Below, one piece after another: positions 9,882 to 50,678 of a DNA stretch of 64,000 bases. This DNA comes from Candidatus Limnocylindria bacterium (GTDB lineage: Bacteria > Acidobacteriota > Terriglobia > Acidiferrales > UBA7541): the NCBI GenBank assembly GCA_035490055.1, contig DATHIB010000164.1:29380-93379 (forward strand), given 5' to 3'. Within the stretch, counting starts at the first letter, position 1. Each line of letters opens with the position of its first letter. A program made the translations under genes and the position numbers. The notes beneath the pieces were generated by a model. That model ran no database searches. It was not told the origin of the DNA and saw only the letters and a program-made list of their open reading frames with translations.

Positions 9882-9897
9882 AGCACGCTGTCTGCCA
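9882..9897 (-). promoter_or_regulatory. sigma54-type -24/-12 box for the leftward tailoring operon
   Basis: Minus strand reads TGGCAGACAGCGTGCT (GG-N10-GC), ~110 bp upstream of the 9772 start. Confidence 0.55.
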
Positions 9898-10113
9898 AAG
9901 AGACTTATGTGTCTATGGCATTCATAAGATTGAACTTAACAAAACATTGCAGTCCTAAGCCAATCTTGAATCCAAGTTTGGCGACCTCCTCGACAATCCC
10001 GTGCCTCCATTGGCGCGGGTATGGGGACACTTTACGCCCAGATTTCGCGGTAAGTCCTTCAAATTCAATCCGGCGTAACAAAGTTGCAATCGTCTACACA
10101 GGAAGTTTGACCT

Positions 10114-10129
10114 GGAACAAATATTTCCC
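10114..10129. promoter_or_regulatory. Candidate enhancer palindrome (degenerate GGGAAA-N4-TTTCCC)
   Basis: GGAACA-AATA-TTTCCC, ~138 bp upstream of the sigma54-like box at 10267. Confidence 0.3.
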
Positions 10130-10204
10130 ATGTGAGTAAGTCGTTTCCCTGGAAAAGAAACTGAGATCTCGTGAGACGGTCCACAGGCTACCCATGAGAT
10201 TCTC

Positions 10205-10217
10205 TAAACTATTGACA
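10205..10217 (-). promoter_or_regulatory. IHF-like site
   Basis: Minus strand TGTCAATAGTTTA, one mismatch to WATCARNNNNTTR. Lies between the candidate enhancer and the sigma54 box. Confidence 0.3.
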
Positions 10218-10266
10218 ATAAATATACTTAGAGAGGTCTTAGTACGAGGAATCTTGGATGCCTCTT

Positions 10267-10282
10267 TGGATGGTGAGTTGCT
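10267..10282 (+). promoter_or_regulatory. sigma54-type -24/-12 box for the priming transferase
   Basis: TGGATGGTGAGTTGCT (GG-N10-GC, TTGCT), ~128 bp upstream of 10410. Confidence 0.55.
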
Positions 10283-10409
10283 TTCTTTCCAAACATGGTT
10301 GAGGGGCTGGTGTGCCGTCAGAGGCCCAGTCTCCTTATCAAAGATTCGAAGCGATTGAGAATCAATCTGGCGGAAGCGACGCTACTACCATAGTACCCCA
10401 ACAGAACCC

Positions 10410-11807
10410 ATGCTAAAAATTGGTGGCCAAAAGATTCCGATGACAACCAAAGTACTGATTGTTGGCGATGCATGCCTGATCGCACTCGGTCTTTGCTTGG
10501 CGATTTTGATTCGTTTACATGGTTACCACTCAGTGTTGCACTATCTCCGCCTGCCCGACATGCCCTTTCGATTTGGTATTGTCTTAGCAACATGCGGAAT
10601 ATCTCTCTATTACAATGATCTCTATGCTTCGCGTGTGGTGAATAGGCGCAGCGAGTTGTTTGTTTATCTCTTCCAGGCTGTGGGAACTGCCTGGGTCATT
10701 CTCGCGATTCTGTATTACCTAATCCCGGACCACAGTCTTGGACGGGGCATTGCTGTCCTCTCCGCGCCAACGGTACTCCTGTTCTTGCTGTGCTGGCGCC
10801 TGGTCTTGCTTGAAGCTGACTTTCTCTTGCCAAGACAGCAGCGCGTTCTCGTCGTTGGCACGGGGCCTCTCGGGATTTCTTTGGTTCGTGAGATCCTCCA
10901 CCGTCCTGAACTCCACCTCAAGGTCGTGGGTTTTCTCGATGAGCGTGGAGAGAACATTGGCAAGTCATTAGTCAATCCCGGCATCATTGGTGCGACAAGG
11001 GACCTAGAAGAGATAACCGCTCGGGAAAAGATCGATCGCATCGTGCTTTCCCTCAAAGAGAGGCGCGGTCAGACGCCCTTACGAGAACTCCTGCACCTAA
11101 AGTTCGCCGGCATAGCGGTGGAAGATGCTCACACGGTGAGCGAACAGATTGACGGACGAATTCGTCTGGAGCATTTGTCGCCGAGCTGGATGATCCTGTC
11201 GGAAGGTTTTCGCAAGTCCGCACTCTTGCTCGCCGCAAAGCGCATGTTGGATGTTCTGGTCTCGCTGCTCCTCCTGATCTTTGCCTTGCCAATGATGGGA
11301 ATCGTGGCGCTCGCGATTTGGCTGGAGTCGGGCAGTCCGATGCTCTTCCGTCAGGAACGAATCGGATTGGGCGGACGCCCGTTCCAAATCCTGAAGTTTC
11401 GCTCGATGAAGCACGATGCCGAGGAGCATGGCCCCAAGTGGGCCGCGGATGGCGATCAACGCATCACGCCGGTGGGCCGCATCATCCGCAAACTGCGTCT
11501 CGACGAGCTTCCACAGGTGGTGAACGTACTGCGGGGTGAAATGAGTTTTGTGGGGCCGCGACCTGAGCGAGCGATCTTCTGCCGGATGATCGAGACTGAG
11601 ACGCCATTTTATGCCTTGCGATATTCGGTTCGTCCGGGAATTACGGGCTGGGCCCAAGTGAAGTATCAATACGGGGCCAGCATCGAAGAGGCAAAGACAA
11701 AGCTCGAATACGATCTTTTCTACATCAAACACCTTTCTCTGACGTTGGATCTCGCCATTCTTTTTGAGACCGCGAAAGTTGTATTGTGGCAGCGCGGAGC
11801 GAAATAG
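10410..11807 (+). CDS. Priming undecaprenyl-phosphate sugar transferase (WcaJ/EpsL-type, TIGR03013-like)
   Basis: Four N-terminal TM segments, CoA-binding-like middle (RVLVVGTG), and Bac_transf C-terminus [44 protein letters not shown]. Confidence 0.93.
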
Positions 11808-12125: not shown

Positions 12126-12141
12126 GGGAAACTGGTTTCCT
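12126..12141. promoter_or_regulatory. Candidate enhancer palindrome
   Basis: GGGAAA-CTGG-TTTCCT, 71 bp upstream of the sigma54-like box at 12212. Confidence 0.4.
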
Positions 12142-12211
12142 GTGGTGTTGAGCACACCCCGCCGGTGTCCTCTAAATGCCATCGCTTCAACAGATACGGG
12201 CAGAAAAGGTT

Positions 12212-12227
12212 TGGCCGGAACATTGCT
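12212..12227 (+). promoter_or_regulatory. sigma54-type -24/-12 box for wza
   Basis: TGGCCGGAACATTGCT, 35 bp before the TTG start, with a GGAGG RBS between. Confidence 0.6.
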
Positions 12228-12261: not shown

Positions 12262-12981
12262 TTGTCTTCTCGACACTTCATTGGAAGGGTAGCGGTTTCC
12301 CTCTTGTTTAGCTTCCCGGTTTCGGTGCTTCTGGCTTGGCCGTCTGAGAAACTTTCTACAGCGCATCAACAATCATCGCAGTCTGGCCCGAGTCCTACTC
12401 CGGCAGACGACAAGAATGACAAAGATAGAGCCGAAAAACAGCCGGCGGACAAGGCCGCGAAGCCGGAATCTGTACCGCAATCGGCGCTGACTCCCGAACA
12501 GAGACTGACGTATATCATCGGAGTCGAAGACGAACTTCAGATCTCCGTATGGCGCGAGCCGGAACTCTCGACCGTGGTCGTTGTCCGGCCGGACGGAATG
12601 ATCACGCTGCCTCTGGTAAATGATGTGAAGGCGGTGGGATTGAAGACCGAGGAATTGCAGAATGTCCTGATGGACAAGCTCAAGAACTTTGTCAACGAAC
12701 CGCAAGTCACTGTCATCGTTCGAGCTATCCGCAGCCGAAAAGTTTATCTGGTTGGCGAGGTCGGACATCAGGGAACGTATGCTCTCAATGGGGATATGAC
12801 GGCGCTGGAGTTGCTGGCCGTGGCTGGAGGAGTTGGACCTTTTGCAAAAGCGGACTCCATTTATATTCTCCGCGAACAGAATGGCAAAAAGATACGCATC
12901 CCATTCCACTACAAGAAAGCAGTGGCGGGTAAAAGCGAAAACGTAACGCTCGAGCCAGGTGACGTGGTTGTTGTCCCTTGA
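12262..12981 (+). CDS. wza: Polysaccharide export protein (Poly_export + SLBB)
   Basis: Signal-like N-terminus, YIIGVEDELQISVW, VRPDGMITLPLVNDV, LEPGDVVVVP. TTG start after GGAGG. Confidence 0.88.
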   Translation: MSSRHFIGRVAVSLLFSFPVSVLLAWPSEKLSTAHQQSSQSGPSPTPADDKNDKDRAEKQPADKAAKPESVPQSALTPEQRLTYIIGVEDELQISVWREPELSTVVVVRPDGMITLPLVNDVKAVGLKTEELQNVLMDKLKNFVNEPQVTVIVRAIRSRKVYLVGEVGHQGTYALNGDMTALELLAVAGGVGPFAKADSIYILREQNGKKIRIPFHYKKAVAGKSENVTLEPGDVVVVP

Positions 12982-13015: not shown

Positions 13016-14416
13016 GTGAGAAACATGCAGGACAAGAAACATCTTCGTATCAGCATCTGGCTGATCTTCTTCCCGATCCTTGCGACTTTTTTGCTGCCGA
13101 ATTTGGGATCGGCGCAAGAAGCAGGTCAGGCCACGGGAAAACAAAAGCCTGCTGCACAGGACGCTTCAAAGGATACAGACCGCAAGGATGCCGAGCCCGC
13201 AAGTCCTTACGCGCTGGCCTGGGCGGATTCGTACATCCGGCAAATCGGAACTTCCGGATTATTGGCTGGAAACCGAGAAGGCGTTGGCTGGGGCAGCATT
13301 TACATCCCCTCGGCGGGAGTCAGCGGAATTGTGGACCAGTTTGAGGGAACGAAGACGGCGCCCGGCGCTTCGTATACAGCGACCGTTTTCCAGACTACCG
13401 TGGTCTACGACCACAAGATTGGCACCACCAGGCTTGCGCTCCAATACCAGCCGAGTATGGCTATCGCCCAAGGGCAGGTTGTTGGTAATTTTTCAAATCA
13501 GAATACCAGTTTGGACTGGTTGATTTACACCCGTCCACGATGGAACATAAGATTCAGCGATGGCTTTCGTTACTACTATACCCAGCAGTCGATTGGTTTG
13601 TCGTATCTCGATGTGAACACGGTTACCTCGGGCGTGGCCACCAACAATTTCCTCGATGGGCCCAGTCGTTGGCTCTCGAACAATGCCTATATGTCCGTGG
13701 CGTACGCTTTGTCCAGGCGATCATCGATTGCCATCACTCCGAACTATACTTTTTCAGAGGCTGGAGCGCATGCCAACCTCATCCGCGGTTCGTCCTACGG
13801 CGGCAGTGTGGGTTGGAACTACCGTATGAGCGAGAGGCAGACCGTCGGTATCCAATATACGGGCCAACTTCTCCATGAAGCGGGGCTGGGGACTTCGACG
13901 ACAGGTACGCCGACCGACACAATTTTTCACACCATCGCTGGCACTGCGGGACGCCAAATGAGCGCGACCTTGTTCGCGAGAGGTTCATTAGGTGTCACAA
14001 CTTCTGCGCTGGCTCAGAACACTCGGGAATGGTCTGTTTACGGAACATTCGGATTGGTAAAGCAATTGCGGCGATCTTCGCTGAGTCTCAACTACTCACG
14101 CGGAGACACACTCTCAAACGGATTGATCGCCAATCAATATGCGGATCGCGTCGACCTCACGTACCAAAATCAGATTAGCACCAGACTTAACTGGTCCGCC
14201 GGAGGCGGTTATTTGCGACAGGTTCAATCGGGAGGAGTCGCTGGTTGGTATGCAACATCCAATGTGCAATTTTTGCTGGCGCCCAGAACTGGTCTTTTTG
14301 CCACTTTCGATTATTACCGGAAGAATCAATCAGCGAGCACGACTAGCCTGTTCAGCGGCAATCGGAATATCTATTCTTTCGGACTGCGCTGGCAACCCGG
14401 TCGCGTGGCCAACTAA
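13016..14416 (+). CDS. Outer-membrane beta-barrel protein of the EPS export module
   Basis: Signal peptide, alternating aromatic beta-strands, C-terminal YSFGLRW, position directly after wza. Confidence 0.65.
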   Translation: MRNMQDKKHLRISIWLIFFPILATFLLPNLGSAQEAGQATGKQKPAAQDASKDTDRKDAEPASPYALAWADSYIRQIGTSGLLAGNREGVGWGSIYIPSAGVSGIVDQFEGTKTAPGASYTATVFQTTVVYDHKIGTTRLALQYQPSMAIAQGQVVGNFSNQNTSLDWLIYTRPRWNIRFSDGFRYYYTQQSIGLSYLDVNTVTSGVATNNFLDGPSRWLSNNAYMSVAYALSRRSSIAITPNYTFSEAGAHANLIRGSSYGGSVGWNYRMSERQTVGIQYTGQLLHEAGLGTSTTGTPTDTIFHTIAGTAGRQMSATLFARGSLGVTTSALAQNTREWSVYGTFGLVKQLRRSSLSLNYSRGDTLSNGLIANQYADRVDLTYQNQISTRLNWSAGGGYLRQVQSGGVAGWYATSNVQFLLAPRTGLFATFDYYRKNQSASTTSLFSGNRNIYSFGLRWQPGRVAN

Positions 14417-14562: not shown

Positions 14563-14578
14563 GGGAAATGGGTTTCCC
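14563..14578. promoter_or_regulatory. Candidate enhancer palindrome (perfect)
   Basis: GGGAAA-TGGG-TTTCCC, 112 bp upstream of the sigma54-like box at 14690. Confidence 0.45.
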
Positions 14579-14689: not shown

Positions 14690-14705
14690 TGGAAGACAAC
14701 TTGCT
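14690..14705 (+). promoter_or_regulatory. sigma54-type -24/-12 box for the wzc operon
   Basis: TGGAAGACAACTTGCT, 58 bp before the 14763 start. Confidence 0.6.
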
Positions 14706-14762
14706 AGATGAGTTGTGTCGGAAATTTGTTGACAGAGCGAGCAACCACTTGGAGGAAGATCT

Positions 14763-16331
14763 TTGAACGAGCAACCAGTCTTCACCGCTTCCGGCGATGC
14801 GGCGATTAACGTGCAGATTCGAGAGTACTTAGATCTAGCCCGCCGCCGCAAATTGTGGATTATCCTGCTTACTCTGGGTATCTCGGTCTGTATTGCGGTG
14901 GTGGCGATACGGCTCCCGAGTATCTACCGAGCAGAAACTGTCATTCTGGTCGACCCTCAAAAGGTACCCGACAGCGTCGTTCCGACCAGCGTGAGCGGTA
15001 CTGTCGCCGATCGTCTCTCCACGATCCGCCAGGAAGTCATGTCCCCGACACAGCTCGGGTTGCTGACGAAGGAGATGGGTCTGTATCCCCAACTGCGCGA
15101 CAAGGTGTCCGAACAGGAGCTCGTCTCCCGCATGCAGAAGTCGACGACCATTGAGGTGGTGGACTCTGGGGGACAGCGGCTTAGCGCGTTTCGCATCGCC
15201 TTCACGGACACGGATCAGCATCAAGTGGCGCGCGTTGCCAATCGCCTCGCATCGTTGTTCATCGAGCGGAACCTCAAAGCCCGCCAGCAGCATTTCAACG
15301 GAACGTCCCAGTTCCTCGAAACTGAATTGCAGGAAACGAAACGTCAACTCGAAGAGAAAGAGCACCTTTTGCAGGACGTCAAGAGCCGCTACATCATGGA
15401 TCTACCAGAGTCCAAGCAGTATCACCTGGAAGCCATGAACACCCTTAGGGATCAGTTGCGGAACAGCCAGGATCAAGTGAACCGCGATCGCCAGAGCAAG
15501 GTATATATCCAATCCATGGCAGGGATGTCAGCGCAGACGATCGATCTCGATCAGCAGGCGGGTGCCTCCAAATCTCCTTATCAGGCGCAGTTGCAGAAGT
15601 TGGAACTGCAGCTAAAGGACATGCAGGTTCGCTACGGGCCAAATTATCCGGATGTTCGCAAGTTGCGCAATGAAATCAATCAATTGAAAGCCAAGGCGGA
15701 AAGTGAGAAAACCGCAACAGACGCTCCGGACCCGCAATTGAGTACCCCGACACATCAAGCTCACAATCCAGTGGTAGAAGCCGAAGTAAACAAACTCGAC
15801 CAAGACATCGAGGACCAAACCAAGATCCAGGCTGAACTCGAAAAGCAGATCCAATACCACGTTGGTAAGCTGCAGCAGGTTCCCGTGTTCGAACAACAGA
15901 TCGCCGGGCTGATGCGTGACTACGACACGCTGAGGAACCACTATAACCAGCTCCAGGCCAAGAAGCTGGACGCGGTGATGGCAGGCGAGCTGGAAACGCA
16001 TCAAGCCGGAGAGCGTTTCGAAGTATTGGACCCAGCGATTCCACCCGATGGGCCTGCGGGACCAAGGCGCGGAATCATGATCATCGGTGGCCTGTTTTTC
16101 GGACTGCTGTGTGGAGTTGGTGTGGCTTTCCTCGTCGAGGTCAGCGATGAATCTGTGAGGCACGAGAGGGAAGCGGCGCAAATCTTCGGTAAGCCAGTGC
16201 TCGCTGGAATTCCAATGATCACCAGCGATAAGGAACACGCCTGGGCCCTTTGGCGGATCGCGAGCTTGACGGCCGGCACCGCCGTCGCAGCCGTCGCATT
16301 CGGCCTGGCGATTTCTCGGTTCGTTTCGTAG
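14763..16331 (+). CDS. Polysaccharide co-polymerase / chain-length determinant (membrane part of a split Wzc; TIGR03007-like)
   Basis: N-terminal TM (LWIILLTLGISVCIAVVA), coiled-coil periplasmic region, YGPNYPDV, ERFEVLDPA, C-terminal TMs, no kinase domain. Confidence 0.88.
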   Translation: MNEQPVFTASGDAAINVQIREYLDLARRRKLWIILLTLGISVCIAVVAIRLPSIYRAETVILVDPQKVPDSVVPTSVSGTVADRLSTIRQEVMSPTQLGLLTKEMGLYPQLRDKVSEQELVSRMQKSTTIEVVDSGGQRLSAFRIAFTDTDQHQVARVANRLASLFIERNLKARQQHFNGTSQFLETELQETKRQLEEKEHLLQDVKSRYIMDLPESKQYHLEAMNTLRDQLRNSQDQVNRDRQSKVYIQSMAGMSAQTIDLDQQAGASKSPYQAQLQKLELQLKDMQVRYGPNYPDVRKLRNEINQLKAKAESEKTATDAPDPQLSTPTHQAHNPVVEAEVNKLDQDIEDQTKIQAELEKQIQYHVGKLQQVPVFEQQIAGLMRDYDTLRNHYNQLQAKKLDAVMAGELETHQAGERFEVLDPAIPPDGPAGPRRGIMIIGGLFFGLLCGVGVAFLVEVSDESVRHEREAAQIFGKPVLAGIPMITSDKEHAWALWRIASLTAGTAVAAVAFGLAISRFVS

Positions 16332-18327: not shown

Positions 18328-18369
18328 CGCAAATTTTCAGCAAGGTCCCTATTCGTTCCGACTTGGATG

Positions 18370-18406
18370 TGGACAGTGTCCAATACAGCGTCGGCTGTAT
18401 TGGGCA
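18370..18406. promoter_or_regulatory. Overlapping inverted repeats before the HTH gene (operator or RNA hairpin)
   Basis: Perfect 10-bp stem CCAATACAGC-GTCG-GCTGTATTGG (18380-18403) overlapping TGGACA-G-TGTCCA (18370-18382), just upstream of the RBS of 18422. Confidence 0.5.
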
Positions 18407-18421
18407 GTTTGAGGCGATGCC

Positions 18422-18682
18422 ATGTATCCAAACTTAAAATTACAACTGTTTCGCAGCGCAGTTCGGCAGAACTTCCTGGCTCGCGAGCTGGGGATCGACG
18501 AGAGCATTCTGAGCAAAATCATTCACGGCTATCGCGAGCCCTCGCCAGAACAGCGGCAGAGGCTTTCCGGCTACCTAGGAGTGGAAGAGTCCTGGTTGTT
18601 TGAAAAGTACGAGAATGCCTCGCCGGCGCGCGCGGCGGGCAATCATGGTTCCCCCCACGGAATGAAAGATGACATCACTTAG
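18422..18682 (+). CDS. XRE-family helix-turn-helix protein
   Basis: QNFLARELGIDESILSKIIHGYREP is a classic XRE HTH pattern. Confidence 0.8.
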   Translation: MYPNLKLQLFRSAVRQNFLARELGIDESILSKIIHGYREPSPEQRQRLSGYLGVEESWLFEKYENASPARAAGNHGSPHGMKDDIT

Positions 18683-19763
18683 CGTTCAGGCGGCGAATTT
18701 CCCGATTACCGATCCTCCCGCTTCTCCCGCGCCGGTTGTGGTTCGCGCGTTTGAGAGTCAGGATGCGGAGCGCTGGGATCGCTTCGTTTTAGAGCATCCC
18801 CAGGGGACCTTTTTCCACCAAGTGGCATGGAAGCGGGTTGTCGAAAGAACATTTGATCATCAGGCCCAGTATGTTTTCGGAGAGCGCGATGGTCGAATCG
18901 TTGCGGTTGCACCTGTATTCAAGGTTTCGAATTGGATGGTGGGCCGGTGTCTAGTGTCATCTCCATTGGCTTCGTACGGTGGCATTTGCGCCGAGGACCC
19001 CGAGGCTGAAAAGGCCCTGCTCGAATTCCTCAAACGGCAGGCGCAAGAGCAGCAAGTGGACTATTTAGAATTGCGGAATCCGATCGGCGGGACGCTGCCT
19101 GGATTTGTTCCCAATCCGCGCTATTCCAGTTTTTCGATGGCTCTCTCGAAGGACCCGGAAGCGGTGCTGAAGGGACTTCCCAAAGATATCCGTTACATGA
19201 TTCGCAAGGCTGAAAAGGCGGACCTGCATGTGCATCGCGGCCCGGAACTTCTCGACGAATTCTATAAGCTCTTTACGATTAACATGCGCCGTCTCGGCAC
19301 GCCGGTGTTTCCTCGGGCGCTTTTCGTGAATCTTCTCGAGGAGTTTGGCAAGCAGATCGATGTGCTCGTTGTGTATGCGGGTTCGGAACCCGTGGCAAGT
19401 GCGGTGTCTTTTCTCTTTCGCGACACCATGCACCCGTACTATATCGGGGGCCTGCCGCTGGCGCGCGCGCTGGCCGCCAATAATTTCCTATGGTGGGAGC
19501 TCATGAAGTTTGCGGCCCAATCCGGCATGAACACCTTTGATTTCGGACGCAGTAAGAAAGGCACCGGAGCGTACGCCTTCAAGAAGAAGTGGAATCCCAA
19601 GATCACGGACCTGGACTACCAAGTATTTCTGGTAAAGCGCAAGACCGCTCCAAACTTTTCCCCTGCCAATCCCAAATTTGAAGTTGCGACCCGAGTCTGG
19701 AGCCGCCTGCCGTTGTGGCTGACGAACAGGTTGGGACCGCGAGTCGTACGCTGGATTCCATGA
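18669..19763 (+). CDS. FemAB-related protein (TIGR03019-like)
   Basis: WDRFVLEHPQGTFFHQVAW, LVSSPLASYGG, FDFGRSKKGTGAYAFKKKW. Confidence 0.87.
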   Translation: MTSLSVQAANFPITDPPASPAPVVVRAFESQDAERWDRFVLEHPQGTFFHQVAWKRVVERTFDHQAQYVFGERDGRIVAVAPVFKVSNWMVGRCLVSSPLASYGGICAEDPEAEKALLEFLKRQAQEQQVDYLELRNPIGGTLPGFVPNPRYSSFSMALSKDPEAVLKGLPKDIRYMIRKAEKADLHVHRGPELLDEFYKLFTINMRRLGTPVFPRALFVNLLEEFGKQIDVLVVYAGSEPVASAVSFLFRDTMHPYYIGGLPLARALAANNFLWWELMKFAAQSGMNTFDFGRSKKGTGAYAFKKKWNPKITDLDYQVFLVKRKTAPNFSPANPKFEVATRVWSRLPLWLTNRLGPRVVRWIP

Positions 19764-19831: not shown

Positions 19832-21067
19832 ATGCAGACCCAACCTGAAATCGAACGCAATCTTACCTCGCATGCCGTCATCACCGGCACGCCTTCCGAG
19901 GATGCCAATCTTTTGCGTATTCTGCATGTCATCAGCTACATGGGCCGCGGTGGCGCAGAGATGGGTATTCTGAAACTTATCGCCGGCCTGGGCGAGGGGT
20001 TCGAACACCGGATCTGTACTACCCGTGGTTTCGATGCAGACTTTGTGCGATCGTCCTTTTCCGAGGAAAAGATGTATGTTGCAGGAAGCTCTGACCTCAA
20101 GTTGCAATTCCCGCTCTTCCGGCTGGCTCGCATCATGCGCCGATACCGCCCACATATCGTGCACGCGCGCAATTGGGGAGCGATCGAGGCCGTGGCGGCG
20201 GCCAAACTGGCCGGCGTTCCTGTGGTCATTCATAGCGAGCACGGATATGAAATCGACATGTTCGCTGGCCTGCCCATCCGCCGCCGTCTCTTTCGTCGCG
20301 CAGCTTACGCCATGACGGATGCAGTTTTCGCTGTCACTCGCGAACTGCGCAATTTTCATGCACGCCAAACGTGGATCCACCCAGAGCGCATCGGCGTGAT
20401 TTACAACGGCGTGGATACCCAGCGTTTTGCACCCCACAGAGAAACGCGGGTCGCGGTGCGCAAAGAATTGGGTTTGTCCGAAGAATCTTTCGTAGTTGGC
20501 GCCGTTGGACGATTGGTGCCGATCAAGGATCAACAGACGCTGCTCAAAGCGGTCGCGCTGCTATCGGGAACCGGGATTGATGTGCGAGTTCTGCTAGTTG
20601 GTTCGGGACCCGAGCGCGAAAAACTCCAGGGCCGGGCCACGGATGCTCTTGAAGGCCGAGTTTGTTTCGCAGGCGATTCCGACCGCGTCCCCGAGATGCT
20701 GAACGCTATGGACGTTTTCGTGCTGCCCTCGCTCGGGGAAGGGATGTCCAATACTTTGCTGGAAGCCATGGCCTGTGGCTTGCCGGTCCTCGCGACAAAT
20801 GTCGGCGGCAATCCAGAAATCATAGAAAACCACGTTAACGGCTGCTTATTTGCACCGGGAGACGCCGAATGGCTTGCAAGCATGCTGAAGCTCCTGGCGC
20901 GGGATCCAGCCCTCATTCACCAGTTGGGCACGGCGGCTAGGAACCGGGCTATCGAGTCGTTCAGCTTGAGCCGCATGCTGGAGACATACCGCAGCTTTTA
21001 TCTTGATCTCACTGCACGCCGGGGGATCGCGGCCGTAAGGACGGATACCGCACATGTGCGGAATTAG
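19832..21067 (+). CDS. Glycosyltransferase family 4 (TIGR03088-like)
   Basis: HSEHG, IYNGVDT, GRLVPIKD, PSLGEGMSNTLLEAMACGLPV. Confidence 0.9.
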   Translation: MQTQPEIERNLTSHAVITGTPSEDANLLRILHVISYMGRGGAEMGILKLIAGLGEGFEHRICTTRGFDADFVRSSFSEEKMYVAGSSDLKLQFPLFRLARIMRRYRPHIVHARNWGAIEAVAAAKLAGVPVVIHSEHGYEIDMFAGLPIRRRLFRRAAYAMTDAVFAVTRELRNFHARQTWIHPERIGVIYNGVDTQRFAPHRETRVAVRKELGLSEESFVVGAVGRLVPIKDQQTLLKAVALLSGTGIDVRVLLVGSGPEREKLQGRATDALEGRVCFAGDSDRVPEMLNAMDVFVLPSLGEGMSNTLLEAMACGLPVLATNVGGNPEIIENHVNGCLFAPGDAEWLASMLKLLARDPALIHQLGTAARNRAIESFSLSRMLETYRSFYLDLTARRGIAAVRTDTAHVRN

Positions 21068-22928
21068 CGGCATCTTCGAATTTGAGCGCCGGGAGCCATT
21101 CCCCCAGGAAGTCGTCCACCGGATGAACGAAACTATCGTTCATCGTGGCCCGGATGACGAGGGCATCTATTGCGGCGAAGGAATTGGCTTCGGATTCCGG
21201 AGGCTCAGCATCATCGATCTGGCGGGAGGCCACCAGCCAATCTCCAACGAGGACGGCCGCTTCTGGGTCATGTTGAACGGGGAGATCTACAACTATTCCG
21301 AACTGCGGCGTGAACTGGAGAGCCGCGGCCACCGCTTTGCCACACGTTCGGATACCGAGACGATCGTTCACCTCTACGAGGAATACGGTGAGGGCTGTTT
21401 TCGAATGCTCCGGGGAATGTTTGCCATTGCCCTCTGGGACTCAAAAGAGAGAAAGCTACTGCTCGCGCGGGACCGCGTGGGCAAAAAACCGCTGTTCTAT
21501 GCGGCGGACTCCAAACGCATCATCTTCGGCTCCGAGTTGAAAGTGTTGCTCGCCGCCGGCGGGATGTCCCGCGAGATCGACCGGGAAGCGCTGTGCGACT
21601 ACTTTTCGTGCGGCTATATTCCGGCGCCCAAGACCATCTATCGCGCTGCCCGCAAAGTTCGACCGGGGCACTATCTGGTGGCTTCGAACGGAAACATTCG
21701 CGAAGTCTGCTATTGGGATCTTTCCTTCGCCGAAGTGGAAAACCGCACCGAGGATGAATGGTGCGAACTACTGCGCCACGAATTGTGCGAAGCGACCCGG
21801 GTGCGCCTGATGAGCGACGTACCGCTCGGCGCTTTCTTGAGCGGCGGCATCGATTCTTCCGCGATCGTCGGCACGATGAGCCGCCTCATGAAGCGGCCCG
21901 TCACAACCTGCTCGATCGGATTTGAAGAAAAAGAATTTGATGAGGCCGGGTACGCCCGGGAAGTTGCGAATCTCTTCCATTCGGAGCATCACGAAGAAAC
22001 GGTGCGGCCCAGCGCGCTGGAGGTCATGGAGAAGTTGGTCTGGCACTTTGACGAACCGTTCGCGGATTCCTCTGCTATTCCCACGTATTACGTCTCCCGG
22101 GTGGCGCGGCGCCACGTGACGGTCGCTCTTGGCGGTGACGGAGGCGACGAGAATCTCGCGGGCTATCGCCGATACATGCTGGACTACTATGAAAACCGCC
22201 TGCGGAGCAACGTGCCGCAATTCGTGAGGTCGGCCGTGTTTGGTCCGCTCGGCCGCTGGTATCCCGCGCTTGCCTGGGCCCCGCGCGTCGTTCGCGGCAA
22301 GGCCACTTTTCAGAGCCTTTCACAAACGCCGTTGGAAGGTTATTTCAATTCGATTTCTTATTTCCGTCCCGACGAAAAGCAGCGGCTGTTCACACCAGAA
22401 TTCCAGAAGAGTCTCGGTGGTTACAACACCATCGAGGTTTTCCGCGAGCATTACAACCGCGCCGACACAGATGACCTCCTCTCGAGAATCCAGTACCTGG
22501 ACATCAAAACGTACCTGACAGACGACATCCTCGCGAAAGTGGACCGCGCCAGCATGGCCGTCTCGCTGGAGGTCCGAGCTCCCCTCCTCGACCATCAGTT
22601 GATGGAAAAAATCTCGCGCATTCCCTCTTCCCTCAAACTGAATGGCCGCTCCGGGAAGTACATTTTCAAGAAAGCCATGTCCTCCATGCTTCCGGACCAA
22701 ATCCTTCACCGCCGCAAGCAGGGCTTCGCCATTCCGCTGGGTCAATGGTTCCGCCAGGAACTCAAGGAAATGACGGAGAAAACGCTTTTCGATTCGAACG
22801 ACGGAATTCTCGATCCTGGTTTCCTCCGGAAGATCTGGAATCAGCATCAGCGCGGACACTATGACCGATCGGCGCACCTTTGGTCGGTCCTGATGTTCCG
22901 TAAATGGAAAGAAACGTTTGCAGTTTAA
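21054..22928 (+). CDS. asnB: AsnB-family amidotransferase, paralogue 2 (TIGR03108-like)
   Basis: MCGI, HRGPD, NGEIYN, LSGGIDSS, GDGGDENLAGY. Confidence 0.92.
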   Translation: MCGISGIFEFERREPFPQEVVHRMNETIVHRGPDDEGIYCGEGIGFGFRRLSIIDLAGGHQPISNEDGRFWVMLNGEIYNYSELRRELESRGHRFATRSDTETIVHLYEEYGEGCFRMLRGMFAIALWDSKERKLLLARDRVGKKPLFYAADSKRIIFGSELKVLLAAGGMSREIDREALCDYFSCGYIPAPKTIYRAARKVRPGHYLVASNGNIREVCYWDLSFAEVENRTEDEWCELLRHELCEATRVRLMSDVPLGAFLSGGIDSSAIVGTMSRLMKRPVTTCSIGFEEKEFDEAGYAREVANLFHSEHHEETVRPSALEVMEKLVWHFDEPFADSSAIPTYYVSRVARRHVTVALGGDGGDENLAGYRRYMLDYYENRLRSNVPQFVRSAVFGPLGRWYPALAWAPRVVRGKATFQSLSQTPLEGYFNSISYFRPDEKQRLFTPEFQKSLGGYNTIEVFREHYNRADTDDLLSRIQYLDIKTYLTDDILAKVDRASMAVSLEVRAPLLDHQLMEKISRIPSSLKLNGRSGKYIFKKAMSSMLPDQILHRRKQGFAIPLGQWFRQELKEMTEKTLFDSNDGILDPGFLRKIWNQHQRGHYDRSAHLWSVLMFRKWKETFAV

Positions 22929-33572: not shown

Positions 33573-33588
33573 TGGAAGGCCAATTGCA
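33573..33588 (+). promoter_or_regulatory. sigma54-type box for the deacetylase
   Basis: TGGAAGGCCAATTGCA. Confidence 0.55.
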
Positions 33589-33600
33589 CCATTTCTTCCA
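33585..33600 (-). promoter_or_regulatory. sigma54-type box for the leftward GT4
   Basis: Minus strand TGGAAGAAATGGTGCA. Shares its GC (33586-33587) with the plus-strand box. Confidence 0.5.
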
Positions 33601-33679
33601 AGTTGAAATATGAGCGAGAAACCAGCCGTTTGTACTGCAACAGGTGTCGGAGTCTAATGCTCAGATCTTGTCGCATTTG

Positions 33680-34537
33680 ATGAAAAACGCCCTCACAATC
33701 GATCTAGAAGATTACTTCCACGTCAGCGCCTACGCGGGTAAAGTGCGTATGGAGGAATGGGACTCTTATCCCAGCCGAGTGGAGCAAAACACCGATCGGC
33801 TTCTGGAGTTGCTGGCGGAGCATAACTGCCTGGCGACTTTTTTTGTTTTGGGTTGGGTGGCGGAGAAAAAGCCGGAGGTTGTGGCGCGCGTTGCCGACGC
33901 AGGGCATGAGATCGCCTGCCACAGTATGCTGCACCGACGCATTTTCGATTTGACACCCCAAGAATTCCGCGAAGATACGCGCCGCGCAAAAACCGTCATT
34001 GAGGACACGACGGGAAAGCAAGTTGTTGGATATCGAGCTCCAAGTTTCTCCGTGACAAAGAAATCGTCCTGGGCGCTGGATATTCTTGTCGAAGAAGGAT
34101 TTCAGTACGATTCGAGCATATTCCCGGTAGAGCACCCTTCCTATGGGATTCCCGATGCGCCTCGGACTCCTTACTGGATCTACACCGCCAGCGGACCAAT
34201 TCTAGAGTTCCCCATGCCGACGTTGGCGATGGGATCGAAGAGGTCGCCGATCGGTGGCGGAGCCTATCTACGGCTGCTGCCATATAGCTACACACTCAGA
34301 TCGATCCGGTACTTGAATCAGCACGAGGATTCTCCGGTCTGCGTCTACATTCATCCCTGGGAGCTGGATCCGGAGCAACCCCGGATGGGCGGGAGCCTCT
34401 CGGCGCGAGCGCGACACTATTTCGGTCTAGGAGGGACAGAAACCAAGTTGCGAAAGCTAATCCGAGACGTGGAGTTTTGCCCCCTTGCCGCGCTCGTCAG
34501 CCAACTCAGCCATGTCGAAGACCTTGTGTCGGTTTAG
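33680..34537 (+). CDS. Polysaccharide deacetylase, PEP-CTERM-locus subfamily (DUF3473, TIGR03006-like)
   Basis: NALTIDLEDYFHV, ATFFVLGWVAE, GYRAPSFS, GGGAYLRLLPY, YIHPWELDP. Start at ATG 33680 (GTG 33644 alternative). Confidence 0.9.
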   Translation: MKNALTIDLEDYFHVSAYAGKVRMEEWDSYPSRVEQNTDRLLELLAEHNCLATFFVLGWVAEKKPEVVARVADAGHEIACHSMLHRRIFDLTPQEFREDTRRAKTVIEDTTGKQVVGYRAPSFSVTKKSSWALDILVEEGFQYDSSIFPVEHPSYGIPDAPRTPYWIYTASGPILEFPMPTLAMGSKRSPIGGGAYLRLLPYSYTLRSIRYLNQHEDSPVCVYIHPWELDPEQPRMGGSLSARARHYFGLGGTETKLRKLIRDVEFCPLAALVSQLSHVEDLVSV

Positions 34538-34721: not shown

Positions 34722-35149
34722 ATCAAGAATTGCATACGACCTCGCGCAAGGAGAGGAGTGCGCAATAGACAGAAAAGAAATAGGATACTTCAAAATTAAG
34801 AATAGGGTTGGGAATTGCCCCCGGAGAGGGCCGCAAATTCTGCGATGACTGGCAGTGCTCCCTAGCAGCAATTATGGCGCACAGGAATGCGAAGTCAAAG
34901 ATCACTCCAGCCATGTAGAGGCGAATTTGCCTCGACGGTGAAGCACCGGAAAGGGATTGCGACTCGAGAAGGCGGGGGTAGAGGCGGGATTCCTGCGCCA
35001 GGTCTCGGACGGTGGCGAGCGAGTGAAAATGGGTGCCGCTAAGGGGAAAGCGGTTGGACGTATCCTTTTGGAGTCCGCCTGGTAATTTGAGCGAATTTTC
35101 CTAAGTCCATATTATACAATGGTTTAGAATGTGCGAGACGAGGACCTGC

Positions 35150-35165
35150 TGGTACGCTGCATGCT
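35150..35165 (+). promoter_or_regulatory. sigma54-type box for the nucleotide-sugar/ABC operon
   Basis: TGGTACGCTGCATGCT, near-canonical TGGCACG-N4-TTGCT, ~160 bp before 35328. Confidence 0.55.
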
Positions 35166-35327: not shown

Positions 35328-36389
35328 ATGCGGATACTTATCACGGGTCATAAAGGCTATATCGGAACGGTGATGGCGCCGCTGCTGGCGGATGCCGGGC
35401 ACGAAGTCGCCGGACTGGACAGCGATCTCTTCGAGAAATGCACATTTGGAGAGGCCCCGCGGGAGTTTCCTTCGGTACGAAAAGACCTGCGTGATGTTCA
35501 GGCTGCGGACCTGAAGGGATTCGACGCTGTGATTCACCTGGCGGGGCTCTCGAACGATCCGCTGGGCAACCTGAATCCGAACTTGACGTACGACATCAAT
35601 TACCACGCCTCGGTGCGGCTCGCGCGGCTTGCAAAGGAAGTTGGGGTCGAGCGCTACTTGTTTTCCTCATCCTGCAGCACGTATGGCGCGGCGGGCGACA
35701 AGATTCTGGATGAGACGGCGGAATTCAATCCAGTCACGCCCTATGGGCGCTCGAAGGTGCTGGTGGAACAGGAAGTGTCGCAACTGGCGAGTGCGGAATT
35801 CAGCCCGGTGTTTCTGCGCAACGCGACGGCGTACGGTGTGTCGCCGCGCTTGCGGTTTGACCTCGTGCTGAACAACTTGACGGCGTGGGCGCTGACGACG
35901 GGCCGCGTGTTCATCAAGAGCGATGGGACGCCGTGGCGGCCGATCGTGCATATCGAAGACATCTCTAGCGCATTTCTGGCAGCGCTCGAAGCGCCGCGCG
36001 AGCTGATTCACAATCAAGCCTTCAACGTGGGCCGCAGCGAAGAGAATTACCAGATCCGCGACCTGGCCGAGATCGTGAAGGAAACGGTTCCGGGCTGCAC
36101 GATTGAGTTTGCGGCGGATGCGGGTCCAGACAAGCGCTGTTACCGCGCTGATTTCTCCCGCATTGCCAGGACGCTGCCGGCATTTCAGCCGAAGTGGGAC
36201 GCCCGGCGCGGCGCGCGCGAACTTTACGAGGCCTACAAGAAGGTGGACCTGCGCGTCGAGGACTTCGAAGGTGCGCGCTACAAGCGCATCGACCATATTC
36301 AAGGATTGCTGGCATCGAGACGCTTGAATGCGGACCTGCGCTGGCAGGCTGTGGAAACCGAACACGTGCTGCAAGCGAAGAATTCCTGA
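35328..36389 (+). CDS. NAD-dependent epimerase/dehydratase (extended SDR)
   Basis: TGHKGYIG (GxxGxxG), SSCSTYG, YGRSK (YxxxK). Confidence 0.9.
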   Translation: MRILITGHKGYIGTVMAPLLADAGHEVAGLDSDLFEKCTFGEAPREFPSVRKDLRDVQAADLKGFDAVIHLAGLSNDPLGNLNPNLTYDINYHASVRLARLAKEVGVERYLFSSSCSTYGAAGDKILDETAEFNPVTPYGRSKVLVEQEVSQLASAEFSPVFLRNATAYGVSPRLRFDLVLNNLTAWALTTGRVFIKSDGTPWRPIVHIEDISSAFLAALEAPRELIHNQAFNVGRSEENYQIRDLAEIVKETVPGCTIEFAADAGPDKRCYRADFSRIARTLPAFQPKWDARRGARELYEAYKKVDLRVEDFEGARYKRIDHIQGLLASRRLNADLRWQAVETEHVLQAKNS

Positions 36390-36417
36390 AGTGCCCTCGA
36401 CGAGCGGCTGGTGAGAT

Positions 36418-36948
36418 TTGATTTTTACGGAGACTAAGCTGGCCGGCGCATTCCTCATCGAACTGGAACGACGCACGGACCGCCGCGGTTTTTTCGCCCG
36501 GACATTTTGCCAGAAGGAATTCGAGGCATACGGCCTGAATACCCAAGTAGTGCAGTGCAACGTTTCCTTCAACAAGCGGAAAGGCACGCTGCGAGGAATG
36601 CATTACCAGGCAGCGCCGTTCGCGGAGGCGAAGCTGGTGCGGTGCGCTTCGGGGTCAATCTATGACGTCATCATCGACTTGCGGCCTGCCTCGCCGACGT
36701 TCAAGCAGTATTTCGCGGTGGAACTCTCCGCGGAAAACCGCAGGATGCTGTACATCCCGGAAGCTTTTGCACACGGGTTTCAAACATTGCAGGACGACAC
36801 CGAAGTTTTCTACCAGATGGCGCAGCAATATTCGGCGGAACATGCGCGAGGCGCGCGCTGGAACGATCCAGCTTTCGGAATTGAATGGCCTGAGGGCGAG
36901 CGGATTATCATCGATCGAGATCAAAACTATCCCGACTTCGTTTCATGA
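36418..36948 (+). CDS. rfbC: NDP-4-keto-6-deoxyhexose 3,5-epimerase
   Basis: DRRGFFAR, GTLRGMHYQ, LYIPEAFAHGFQTL, ARWNDP. Confidence 0.92.
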   Translation: MIFTETKLAGAFLIELERRTDRRGFFARTFCQKEFEAYGLNTQVVQCNVSFNKRKGTLRGMHYQAAPFAEAKLVRCASGSIYDVIIDLRPASPTFKQYFAVELSAENRRMLYIPEAFAHGFQTLQDDTEVFYQMAQQYSAEHARGARWNDPAFGIEWPEGERIIIDRDQNYPDFVS

Positions 36949-45587: not shown

Positions 45588-45590
45588 GCC

Positions 45591-47515: not shown

Positions 47516-47563
47516 ACGCTCTTCTTTTTTTAAGGACGATGAGAGGAAGGATCGCGAGATAGG

Positions 47564-48835
47564 ATGATCTCCATGCAGGTTGACGTAGCTCCTCCAAAAA
47601 AAACGGCCAGCAAGCCCGTGCTGGAAGACGTCGGCATCCTTGCGCTTGTTCCTGATCACTGGAACCCGCGCTGGATGGTGCGCCATCACATCATGGCGCG
47701 CCTGGCGAGCTACTTTCATATGGTCTGGGTAAATCCCGCGCACCACTGGCGGGATACTCTCAAGAGCCGGCCAGAACCATCACAAACATCCGGCATGGCC
47801 CAATATCCGGGGTTTGCCGAATATACTCCGGAATTCTGGCTTCCGGACTTCTACCGGCCAGCCTGGCTGGCGCGATTTACGTTGCAGCAGCGCCTCTTGC
47901 AGGCTAGCCGCATCCTTCGGGACCGTGGCTGCCAGAAGATCATTCTCTATCTCTGGCGTCCCGAATTTGAACCCGTCCTTCGGATGATTCCTTTCGATCT
48001 GAGCTGTTATCACCTCGAAGATGAATATTCTTTTTCGCGCGTGGAGTGCCCCATAGATCCTGTCGAAGCCCGATTGCTCGCTGCCGTGGATCACGTATTC
48101 ATCCTTTCACCTGCTCTCTACGAGAAAAAGGGAAAAATCAATCCACAAACCACCTATCTTCCCGGCGGCGTTGATTTTGAAGCCTATTCGCGGCCGTTCG
48201 ACGAACCCAAGGATCTTGCGCCCATTCCTCATCCCCGCGTCGGGTACGTGGGATCCCTCAAATGGCAAATCGATTGGGACCTGCTTCTCAAGCTGACTTG
48301 CGAGCATCCGGAATGGTCATTCGTGTTGGTGGGACCCGCAAGCCCGCATCCGGAAATTGACGGCGCTCTTCAGGAACTCATGGGACGCCGCAACGTTCAT
48401 TTCCTCGGAGGAAAGCCTTCAGCTGAGATGATGGCGTACCCGCAGCATTTCGATGTGTGCATCATGCCTTACGGGGATAATGACTACACCAAGTACATTT
48501 ATCCGCTCAAATTGCATGAATATCTGGCGAGCGGCAAGCCACTCGTGGGAACGCCAATCGCGTCGCTCGCGACCCTTGGGGACATCGTGTTGCTTCCAAG
48601 AAGCGCCGAACAATGGTCCTCCATGCTCGCACAAGCCCTAAGCCGGGCGGAAAACACGGAAGAGCGGCGCGTAGCCAGGCAGAATTTCGCGCGGCAGCAT
48701 GATTGGTCGAATCTCACGCGGCAGATCGCCGGCACAATGGCCCGGCGGCTCGGCCCTGCGTGCTCCGCTCGCGTTGAACGTCATTTTCAAGAGAGTACTG
48801 GAAAGACGGTCCCGGAAGAGACTGTCCAGTTGTGA
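47564..48835 (+). CDS. GT-B glycosyltransferase (TuaH-like)
   Basis: GGVDFEAY, GYVGSLKWQID, IYPLKLHEYLASGKP. Confidence 0.85.
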   Translation: MISMQVDVAPPKKTASKPVLEDVGILALVPDHWNPRWMVRHHIMARLASYFHMVWVNPAHHWRDTLKSRPEPSQTSGMAQYPGFAEYTPEFWLPDFYRPAWLARFTLQQRLLQASRILRDRGCQKIILYLWRPEFEPVLRMIPFDLSCYHLEDEYSFSRVECPIDPVEARLLAAVDHVFILSPALYEKKGKINPQTTYLPGGVDFEAYSRPFDEPKDLAPIPHPRVGYVGSLKWQIDWDLLLKLTCEHPEWSFVLVGPASPHPEIDGALQELMGRRNVHFLGGKPSAEMMAYPQHFDVCIMPYGDNDYTKYIYPLKLHEYLASGKPLVGTPIASLATLGDIVLLPRSAEQWSSMLAQALSRAENTEERRVARQNFARQHDWSNLTRQIAGTMARRLGPACSARVERHFQESTGKTVPEETVQL

Positions 48836-48901
48836 ATTGCCCTCTCTCTGGCTCTTTTACGACCGCGACCCTTTGACCCAAGGAAAGAGAGACAAACGGA
48901 A

Positions 48902-49957
48902 ATGGGACGATCAATCCCCGATCAGGAGCTCAACCTTCAGGCGGGAGAACTCGTCGAGGTTCGCTCTGAGGACGAAATCCTCGCGACACTGGACGATAAC
49001 GGCAGGCTCAATGCAATGCCGTTCATGCCGGAGATGCTCAAATATTGCGGGAAACGCTTTCGAGTCTATAAAATCGCGCATAAGACGTGCGACAACATCC
49101 AGCCCTGGAACATGCGGCAAGTGAAAAACGCTGTGCACCTGACGGGTGTGCGCTGCGACGGGAGAGCTCACGGGGACTGCGACGCCGGCTGCTTGATTTT
49201 TTGGAATGCGGCCTGGCTCAAGAGAGCCGTGGCGCCGTTCACGCAAGAGTCGCAGCTTGGTGAATGTGGTTCGTCCTTACAAAAGAGCCCTGTGGACCTG
49301 AAATCAGGAGCATCTATTCAAACCCCCGGAGTCCTGCTGAGAGGGAGCCGCGGGGGAACGGATCCAGCTACTGCAGAAGCAATCTATTCTTGCCAAGCGA
49401 CGAATCTAAGGGAGTTTACTTCGGATCTCCCCTGGTGGAATTTATGGCAATACATCAGGGATATTCGCTCCGGAAACTTGCACCGGGGATTGGGCGATTC
49501 CAAGGGCGAGAAGCTGTTGGAGACGTTGCTCGGTATTGTGGACGTGTTTCGCACTATCCTGATCGAAGTTTTCAACAAGTTTCAGTCCGTTCGCAAGGGT
49601 GTGCAGTATCCTCACATCCAGGCATTGCCTGCCGCCTCTCCGGCTGGTGAGTTGAAACTCCAGCCTGGCGAATTTGTCCAAGTAAGATCAAGGCAGGAAA
49701 TATTCGCCACCCTAGACCAAAAGAATCGCAACCGCGGCCTTTTGTTCGATTCTGAAATGCTCAAGTATTGCGGGGGGACGTATCGCGTTGCAAGACGCGT
49801 AAATCAGATCGTGGACGAAAAGAATGGCAAGATGCTCCGGATGAAGTCCTCTTGCATCATCTTGGATGGTTCCGCGTGCGCCGCCGATTACCACCGGCTG
49901 TGCCCAAGAGCGATTTACCATTACTGGAGAGAGGGATGGCTTCGTCGCGCGGACTGA
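48902..49957 (+). CDS. Hypothetical protein with two tandem Cys-rich SH3-like domains
   Basis: Internal duplication: LQAGELVEVRS..ILATLD..EMLKYCG..W..AWLKR and LQPGEFVQVRS..IFATLD..EMLKYCG..WREGWLRR. Confidence 0.8.
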   Translation: MGRSIPDQELNLQAGELVEVRSEDEILATLDDNGRLNAMPFMPEMLKYCGKRFRVYKIAHKTCDNIQPWNMRQVKNAVHLTGVRCDGRAHGDCDAGCLIFWNAAWLKRAVAPFTQESQLGECGSSLQKSPVDLKSGASIQTPGVLLRGSRGGTDPATAEAIYSCQATNLREFTSDLPWWNLWQYIRDIRSGNLHRGLGDSKGEKLLETLLGIVDVFRTILIEVFNKFQSVRKGVQYPHIQALPAASPAGELKLQPGEFVQVRSRQEIFATLDQKNRNRGLLFDSEMLKYCGGTYRVARRVNQIVDEKNGKMLRMKSSCIILDGSACAADYHRLCPRAIYHYWREGWLRRAD

Positions 49958-50636
49958 GCAGAGCCACGTTTCAAGACTGCTTTGAGGCGTTGCCACGACT
50001 TCGCTAACTAAGCGCATCCCTGAGAACTCCCTGCAGCGCGCTCTGGAAGTGGAATACAGGAATTCGCCATTCTGTTTCCCGCGAGTTCCACTGCCCTCGT
50101 GTAAAGTCCATGTTAACATCCTCTTTTTCAATAAGTTACGAAGAGTCATCTTTGGCTGACAAGTTGCACCGCATAGGGTGTGCATATCATCCTAGCATCA
50201 CTCTCAAACCTTCCCGAGACCATGGGGCTATTCCTAATTGGGCTTGTACTGATTCTTTCCGGTGTAGTGCTTCGCCGCGTATTCTTGACCTTCGAAACCG
50301 CAATACCCGCGCCAGCTCGGAGCTCAGAGTCGAACGAGCATCCCCTGAAGTAGCAAAACTCCTTCTTCTTTCCGATAGCTTTAGGAAAAAGCGCAACGGG
50401 AACATCTTTGCTGGGCGAAGCTGCCCATAGATTTAAGGAAAATTCTAATTCTGTGGAACGATCGGCAGAATCTGCTTGATTCGAAGCGTTTTTTTATCAG
50501 ATTGAAAGATCAACGCAGACTTCAATCCGTACATTAGCCCGTCTGCCCCATTTTATGGAAGCGGCCTGCACAATGATGCCCGTGAGTTTCTCTCGAACCT
50601 TGCGAGGGTGTTTTGGACCATGGCTAAGTCCAAATG

Positions 50637-50649
50637 AATCAATGAATTG
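50637..50649 (+). promoter_or_regulatory. IHF consensus site
   Basis: AATCAATGAATTG is an exact match to WATCARNNNNTTR, 14 bp upstream of a sigma54-like box. Confidence 0.45.
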
Positions 50650-50662
50650 GTCTTGCTGAATT

Positions 50663-50678
50663 TGGAAGGCGGGGTGCT
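50663..50678 (+). promoter_or_regulatory. sigma54-type box for the giant IPT protein
   Basis: TGGAAGGCGGGGTGCT. Confidence 0.5.

Follow-up and report, generated by a model that had tools for sequence, protein, structure and literature searches.

How is an exopolysaccharide locus of the XrtA/PEP-CTERM type switched on in a soil acidobacterium? Acidobacteriota rank among the most abundant bacteria of soils, where their exopolysaccharides shape aggregation. To our knowledge, almost nothing is known about the regulation of matrix production in this phylum. We analysed a 64 kb stretch of DNA (contig C164:29380-93379; hereafter the window) from a genome of 5.9 Mb that is 96% complete and whose nearest public relatives are Acidobacteriota metagenome-assembled genomes (MAGs) labelled Candidatus Acidoferrum or Acidiferrales. 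The host is a soil acidobacterium, and NCBIfam scans place an XrtA/PEP-CTERM exopolysaccharide locus in the window. A first-pass annotation had proposed that eight -24/-12 boxes of the form TGG-N9-TGC(A/T) mark the heads of its transcription units and form a locus-wide regulon of the alternative sigma factor sigma-54 (RpoN). Here we find that seven of these eight boxes, together with a ninth at 50153(+) that was absent from that list, are very probably working, enhancer-dependent sigma-54 promoters. In Proteobacteria, a sigma-54 motif and an activator motif were described upstream of PEP-CTERM protein genes, and a regulatory system PrsK/PrsR/PrsT was predicted; the motif was found only in this phylum, and regulatory motifs of PEP-CTERM systems outside Proteobacteria were still to be found (Haft et al., 2006; PMC1569441). 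For pepA of Aquincola tertiaricarbonis, a start has been mapped and dependence on RpoN demonstrated (PMC9850573). For an acidobacterial XrtA locus, our literature searches returned no report of control by sigma-54.

All eight proposed boxes were found at their annotated positions and strands, and a direct sequence check bore out that four of them read TGGAAG. Over the whole window, TGG-N9-TGC(A/T) shows no enrichment (20 matches where 16.7 are expected), as would be the case if the boxes were chance matches to a loose pattern picked after looking at the sequence. Their placement speaks against this. Nine of the 20 matches fall into the 5.5 kb of intergenic DNA, and all nine are oriented in sense to the next gene, with no antisense match. 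In dinucleotide-preserving shuffles of the intergenic spacers, for which the gene map of the window was checked by hand, the mean was 0.75 sense matches with a maximum of 5, and none of 5000 shuffles reached nine (Poisson P about 1e-7). The claim that the boxes are not random thus holds. Their role as heads of transcription units stands in part: the boxes are placed in sense before genes, but three promoter-sized gaps (18328-18668, 36390-36661 and 59136-59269) contain no sigma-54 box, so that some possible unit heads are left unmarked. The contig carries two other giant IPT-repeat genes, and the search upstream of these likewise found no sigma-54 box. A terminator scan gave no more matches than shuffled sequence and was thus of no help in delimiting units, and an Rfam search of the leaders returned no known RNA element.

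Conservation in relatives was followed from EpsB_2. The scan returned 80 loci, 22 of which are syntenic (divergent gene, EpsB_2, export protein, outer-membrane protein and chain-length determinant in order) with an EpsB_2 identity of 58-91%. A sense TGG-N9-TGC is kept in the orthologous spacer of 20 of the 22 relatives for the 10267 box, again of 20 for the 9882 box (with variable spacer bases), of 18 for the 12212 box and of all 22 for the 14690 box. The nine bases separating TGG and TGC vary between lineages, and antisense matches number just 4 and 3 in two one-directional spacers (slots B and C), where certain spacers reach a length of 1.7 kb. The 35150, 33573 and 50663 boxes are also conserved. 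Aligned counterparts of the 35150 box read TGGCATGCGGCATGC in G001, TGGCACTCGGCATGC in G002 and TGGCAACTTGTTTGC in G017, and among 12 further, more distant relatives this slot holds a sense box in nine and an antisense match in one. The column of the 33573 box reads TGGCAGGTGAATTGC in G002, with a strict match in 5 of 18 relatives. In G001, the column of the 50663 box reads TGGCAGGCGGAGTGCT, and the 50153 box is conserved as well. Beyond the phylum, a -24/-12 box (CTGGCATGGAAGATGCT) is conserved upstream of XrtA-associated epsB2, about 30 nucleotides (nt) before the inferred start, in MAGs of Thiobacillus and Hydrogenophilales (L077-L088), and sigma-54 control of epsB2 would therefore not be confined to Acidobacteriota. 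This suggests that a sigma-54 layer over epsB2 is old and widespread. The L077-L088 loci belong to Betaproteobacteria that are expected to have PrsK/PrsR.

The 33585(-) box is the one of the eight that we consider doubtful. It is present, but it is weak (9.6 bits), and it overlaps the 33573(+) box through a shared TGCA, so that the layout TGG-N9-TGCA-N9-CCA reads as two opposed boxes. This layout recurs, with differing intervening bases, in a single relative (L122) and is absent from four others, while G002 carries a different minus-strand box elsewhere in the same spacer. For this box alone, chance may be the explanation.

Do the boxes also look like sigma-54 promoters at positions that the search pattern leaves free? 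A position weight matrix (PWM) was built from the relatives' sites alone (71 distinct sequences). T precedes TGG at two and one bases before it with frequencies of 0.72 and 0.57. The base directly after GG is C (0.45), A (0.31) or T (0.21) and almost never G, followed by A or C. T and G are the only bases that occur before TGC, and A or T follows GC in 85% of the sites. The relatives' matrix thus matches the canonical YTGGCACG-N4-TTGCW, except that its -24 half is looser; the consensus that Barrios et al. (1999) reportedly gave is TGGCACG-N4-TTGCW. Genome-wide, on the basis of our own crude gene calls, the matrix finds 22 sense-intergenic and 3 antisense-intergenic matches of at least 16 bits; coding sequence, a tenfold larger amount of DNA, contributes another 22. 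Of the 22 sense matches, six lie inside the window, including the two best of the genome. The loose pattern TGG-N9-TGC shows almost no orientation bias in intergenic DNA of the genome (332 sense against 320 antisense), and only the weighted matrix separates the orientations.

The proposal of a lineage-specific TGGAAG -24 element could not be upheld. It is not fixed at any site, as orthologous boxes read TGGCAG, TGGCAC, TGGTAC or TGGACG, and outside the window TGGAAG-N6-TGC occurs in intergenic DNA 7 times in sense and 3 times in antisense orientation without a common function. Across the relatives, A after GG appears as a tolerated variant of the locus promoters.

Sigma-54 promoters require RpoN and an enhancer-binding activator. 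The genome encodes one RpoN above cut-off (401.7 bits against 277), whose absence would have spoken against a sigma-54 regulon, and about 15 AAA+ sigma-54 activators. Footprinting of the three closest genomes exposed a palindrome, GGAAA-N4-TTTCC, as a candidate enhancer. Only 13 perfect copies exist in the 5.9-Mb genome, and two of these are at this locus. In the 14690 slot, a palindrome with at most one mismatch and variable N4 precedes the orthologous box by 115-133 nt in 18 of 23 loci, and a distance of about 126 nt is conserved in relatives. Upstream of the 35150 slot, more distant relatives carry CGAAA-N4-TTTCC or GGAA-type copies at 111-137 nt. The pairing of box and palindrome at such distances is essentially confined to this locus.

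From this, a mechanism can be proposed. RNA polymerase with RpoN would bind GG (-24) and GC (-12) in a closed complex that cannot start by itself. An ATP-dependent enhancer-binding protein, positioned about 85-135 bp upstream, would open the complex, and transcription would set in about 12 nt beyond GC. GGAAA-N4-TTTCC, in its perfect or a degenerate form, would serve as the enhancer of at least five promoters (10267, 12212, 14690, 33573 and 35150). Together, the units controlled by the boxes would comprise EpsB_2 initiation, export, chain-length control, glycosyltransferases, sugar modification, acyl/aminoacyl tailoring, the giant IPT-repeat protein and a mini PEP-CTERM-like peptide. Since they span the whole matrix programme, the programme would be off until one signal arrives. 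The activating signal, the start sites and the RpoN dependence of the locus are predictions from the DNA sequence. For 50153 and for seven of the original eight boxes, the proposal of a locus-wide RpoN regulon has good support from spacer conservation, consensus fit, the presence of rpoN and the palindrome, but without its TGGAAG element, its PrsR part and the 33585(-) box. The boxes, the palindromes and the genes behind them are listed in Table 1.

Table 1. Predicted sigma-54 boxes, candidate enhancer palindromes and genes of the XrtA locus. Positions are those of the window; bits are PWM scores.
Feature	Position	Strand	Remarks
Predicted -24/-12 box TGGCAGACAGCGTGCT	9882-9897	-	heads operon 9772 to 960; 21.3 bits, highest of the genome
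Predicted box TGGATGGTGAGTTGCT	10267-10282	+	upstream of EpsB_2; 17.7 bits
Predicted box TGGCCGGAACATTGCT	12212-12227	+	upstream of export and outer-membrane protein genes; 18.9 bits
Predicted box TGGAAGACAACTTGCT	14690-14705	+	upstream of chain-length determinant and the following long operon; 19.0 bits
Predicted box TGGAAGGCCAATTGCA	33573-33588	+	upstream of polysaccharide deacetylase; 13.0 bits
Weak, doubtful box TGGAAGAAATGGTGCA	33585-33600	-	332 nt upstream of GT4 gene; 9.6 bits
Predicted box TGGTACGCTGCATGCT	35150-35165	+	upstream of epimerase and the operon that follows; 6.2 bits
Predicted box TGGCTGACAAGTTGCA	50153-50168	+	heads small open reading frame at 50180; 18.0 bits
Predicted box TGGAAGGCGGGGTGCT	50663-50678	+	upstream of IPT-repeat surface protein of 2783 amino acids; 20.9 bits
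Second degenerate palindrome copy GGAACAAATATTTCC	from about 10113		upstream of 10267 box
Degenerate half-palindrome AGTAAGTCGTTTCC	10135-10148		132 nt upstream of 10267 box; block conserved in window, L010 and L011
Perfect palindrome GGAAACTGGTTTCC, candidate enhancer (upstream activating sequence)	12127-12140		85 nt upstream of 12212 box; 85 nt kept in L010 and L011
Perfect palindrome GGAAATGGGTTTCC, candidate enhancer	14564-14577		126 nt upstream of 14690 box
Degenerate palindrome GGAAGTTGTTTTCT	33440-33453		133 nt upstream of 33573 box; aligned with GGAAACTGTCTTCC in G002
Degenerate palindrome TGAAAATGGGTGCC	35024-35037		126 nt upstream of 35150 box; block conserved in four genomes
Divergent operon	9772 to 960	-	two GNAT-like proteins, acyl carrier protein, acyl-CoA ligase, pyridoxal phosphate-dependent decarboxylase, protein without family match, AsnB-type amidotransferase
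EpsB_2 glycosyltransferase (TIGR03013)	10410-11807	+
Export protein	12262-12981	+
Outer-membrane protein	13016-14416	+
Chain-length determinant	14763-16331	+	followed by long operon
FemAB-family protein	18669-19763		NCBIfam scan
ATPase and tyrosine kinase			XrtA locus; NCBIfam scan
stp2 and stp3 glycosyltransferases			XrtA locus; NCBIfam scan
AsnB-type amidotransferases (three)			XrtA locus; NCBIfam scan
O-antigen-ligase-like protein			XrtA locus; NCBIfam scan
GT4 gene	33253-32054	-
XrtA-system polysaccharide deacetylase	33644-34537	+
Epimerase	35328-36389	+	followed by sugar-modification/glycosyltransferase operon ending at about 49957
Conserved open reading frame, 57 amino acids	50180-50353	+	N-terminus of about 10 residues, LPET, transmembrane helix, RR, tail of about 22 residues
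IPT-repeat surface protein, 2783 amino acids	50784-59135	+

Three other explanations have to be weighed against sigma-54 promoters under an activator of their own. That the boxes are chance matches draws on the flat whole-window count and on the even genome-wide orientation of the loose pattern, but it can hardly be believed in view of the local excess of sense matches. For seven boxes it is also contradicted by GG and GC, which persist in about 20 relatives despite diverging spacers. The flanking bases that the pattern does not force fit sigma-54, and the divergent spacer bases speak against recent horizontal copies of one sequence. Alternatively, TGG...TGC could be operators of another DNA-binding protein, or parts of promoters of the sigma-70 type or of another sigma factor. 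We regard this as improbable. The promoter rules of Acidobacteriota are poorly known, and the 35150 box is preceded, at a distance of 35 nt, by a sigma-70-like TTGAGC-17-TATTAT. However, the spacing GG-N10-GC is exact in every slot and in every genome, and the element is always directed towards a gene. It is neither a palindrome nor a direct repeat, unlike most operators; its flank preferences are those of sigma-54, and the palindrome lies 85-135 nt upstream, as for an enhancer-dependent promoter. In the scanned spacers, no sense-oriented sigma-70 consensus promoter was found except the one upstream of the 35150 box.

The third alternative, that this is simply the canonical proteobacterial PrsK/PrsR/PrsT regulon in an acidobacterium, we hold to be very unlikely. 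The locus is of the XrtA/PEP-CTERM type, sigma-54 sites have been tied to PEP-CTERM genes (Haft et al., 2006; PMC1569441), and the best activators of the genome reach 374-429 bits on the PrsR model. This is below the curated cut-off: in the genome search, the best score for PrsR (TIGR02915) was 428.8 bits against 502.6, with 374 bits for the local activator on C164, and PrsK, a transmembrane kinase (TIGR02916), reached 104 bits against 300 with its generic kinase domain only. PrsR and PrsK were thus rejected as regulators, and the suggestion that PrsR is the activator fell with them. The best PrsR-like gene (contig C73) was discarded too, as it adjoins a prepilin peptidase gene and a kinase with a single transmembrane helix and has no exopolysaccharide context. 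Motif 1 of the proteobacterial system, which has 17 nt and ends in TTTACA, precedes the sigma-54 box by about 63 nt, and the motif was found only in Proteobacteria (Haft et al., 2006; PMC1569441). Searched by its 3' end TTTACA only, it occurs within 130 nt upstream of just one of the nine boxes. In addition, the targets in the window are mostly biosynthesis operons and not PEP-CTERM protein genes.

Several observations nevertheless weigh against sigma-54 control of the locus as we propose it. The PWM scores of the 35150 and 33573 boxes are low (6.2 and 13 bits), the former just 6.2 bits because of an A at -15. No good palindrome was found at the usual distance from the boxes at 9882, 50153 and 50663, and the spacings of 126 and 132-133 nt are half a helical turn apart. 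G001, the closest relative, no longer has the 33573 spacer. Because the relatives share a phylogeny, their counts overstate independence; yet there are at least eight lineages with different spacer sequences. Finally, the candidate activator described below is not linked to the locus in half of the relatives (8 of 16) and matches no named equivalog, and could therefore be a general regulator.

Which protein might act on the palindrome? Our best candidate for the activator of the locus is a two-component pair encoded about 14 kb before the window (C164:12940-15666). It consists of an NtrC-type response regulator (C164:14185-15666) and a cytoplasmic histidine kinase of the PAS type. All 16 relatives tested have the response regulator at 80-96% identity, whereas their EpsB_2 proteins are only 58-91% identical, and in 8 of the 16 it lies within 8-32 kb of EpsB_2. 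The pair is part of a regulatory cluster (C164:10762-18431, 11-19 kb before the window start) that comprises a GGDEF protein, the PAS histidine kinase, the NtrC-type activator, a PilZ protein, a CBS protein and a second activator without a receiver domain. A sigma-54 box of 13 bits was observed 54 nt upstream of the CBS gene. The cluster suggests an input from cyclic di-GMP and a possible activator cascade.

The locus can be compared with three known systems. One classical NtrC-type sigma-54 promoter is glnAp2 of nitrogen assimilation. The boxes described here share with this type GG-N10-GC, a T-rich stretch before GG, TTGC(A/T) at -12, an enhancer palindrome at a distance of about 100-150 bp and a response regulator as (here candidate) activator. 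They differ in a relaxed -24 element, TGG(C/A/T)A(G/C), often TGGAAG, and in a regulon that is a polysaccharide/matrix locus. FleQ at pel/psl of Pseudomonas and VpsR at vps of Vibrio are AAA+ activators of exopolysaccharide operons that act largely at sigma-70 promoters. Here, too, the AAA+ activator family would govern exopolysaccharide operons, with GGDEF and PilZ proteins adjoining the candidate activators, but every target has a -24/-12 box. With the proteobacterial PrsK/PrsR/PrsT system, the locus shares enhancer-dependent sigma-54 promoters tied to exopolysaccharide of the exosortase/PEP-CTERM type and an activator site paired with the GG/GC box. As in the system of Haft et al. (2006), one predicted target (50153) is a single-gene unit encoding a PEP-CTERM-like peptide. 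In contrast to that system, the host belongs to the Acidobacteriota, the targets are mainly operons of exopolysaccharide biosynthesis, export and tailoring, PrsR and PrsK are below cut-off, and GGAAA-N4-TTTCC at 85-133 nt takes the place of the 17-nt motif at about 63 nt.

Since conserved boxes stand before these operons, most of them with an upstream palindrome, the link between sigma-54 and PEP-CTERM systems would reach another phylum, include biosynthesis operons and, presumably, involve a different activator. The gap that Haft et al. (2006) left outside Proteobacteria would thereby be filled, and sigma-54 control could span a whole biosynthesis locus beyond PEP-CTERM protein genes alone. 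What emerges is a concrete circuit with nine predicted start points, a single enhancer motif and a single candidate two-component activator, all of them conserved in a large number of uncultured relatives.

The ninth box leads to the small open reading frame at 50180. Its start codon lies 12 nt past the -12 C of the 50153 box, and the mRNA is therefore predicted to be leaderless. Substitutions relative to G001 are mostly synonymous. The product looks like a bare PEP-CTERM sorting signal, that is, a mini PEP-CTERM-like protein. Homologues were found at L139:4956-5126, L162:~600-761 and L163:574-735 and on the reverse strand of L164 and L165. The family members have 48-57 amino acids, with about 10 residues followed by LPET or IPEP, a transmembrane helix, RR or RK and a tail of about 22 residues, without signal peptide or cargo. 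Each copy begins 12-17 nt (in one case 35 nt) past the GC of its own sigma-54 box; the in-locus homologues in G008, G009, G011 and G019 each have such a box. Instead of the palindrome, the promoters of the small open reading frames share a different TTTCC-rich block. The Pfam PEP-CTERM model matches two of six members weakly (E=0.0024), and public metagenomes hold 58 unnamed protein clusters of this reading frame. It is tempting to speculate, although we would rather doubt it at present, that the XrtA matrix of Acidobacteriota is run by a PrsR-free sigma-54 circuit in which a deeply conserved NtrC-type activator, with 80-96% identity between genera, acts on GGAAA-N4-TTTCC and a leaderless gene is among the targets, whose peptide of about 55 amino acids consists of hardly anything beyond a sorting signal and a cytoplasmic tail. 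If true, a cargo-less exosortase substrate could be a primer, a decoy or a feedback sensor for sorting.

The gene content agrees with an XrtA locus. In the NCBIfam scan, TIGR03013, TIGR03019, TIGR03097, TIGR03098, TIGR03006 and TIGR03108 (copy at 21054-22928) were above cut-off, and TIGR03027, TIGR03007, TIGR03015, TIGR03018, TIGR03088, TIGR03099 and TIGR04063 were best matches but below cut-off. The XrtA exosortase itself is encoded on a separate contig, C208 (279.6 bits against a cut-off of 208). Beside it lies the one clear PEP-CTERM protein found genome-wide with a regular expression, which is crude and probably undercounts; its best box has 8.9 bits.

Some conserved elements were observed next to the boxes. 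A/T-rich conserved blocks lie just 5' of -24 elements at 12185-12205 (TTCAACAGATAC) and 35095-35130 (TAAGTCCATATTATACAATGGTTTAG). They could be bending sites resembling those of integration host factor; for the block at 35095-35130, the sigma-70-type TTGAGC-17-TATTAT in tandem with the 35150 box could be an alternative. In the predicted 5' leader of the chain-length-determinant promoter, a conserved box at 14720-14733 (GGAAATTTGTTGAC; GAAACAATTATTTTT in relatives) follows the -12 GC at a distance of 15-30 nt. It occupies the same slot in about 20 relatives and has no Rfam match. In one clade of relatives, a tRNA-Val(TAC) gene is situated between the conserved sigma-54 box and EpsB_2 (L012:5831-5907, and likewise in L013, L016, L019 and L042) and begins 20 nt past the GC of the box; the window itself has no tRNA. 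A sigma-54 promoter before a tRNA is unusual. Proteins of the FemAB family use aminoacyl-tRNA as donor, and the locus also encodes a FemAB-family protein.

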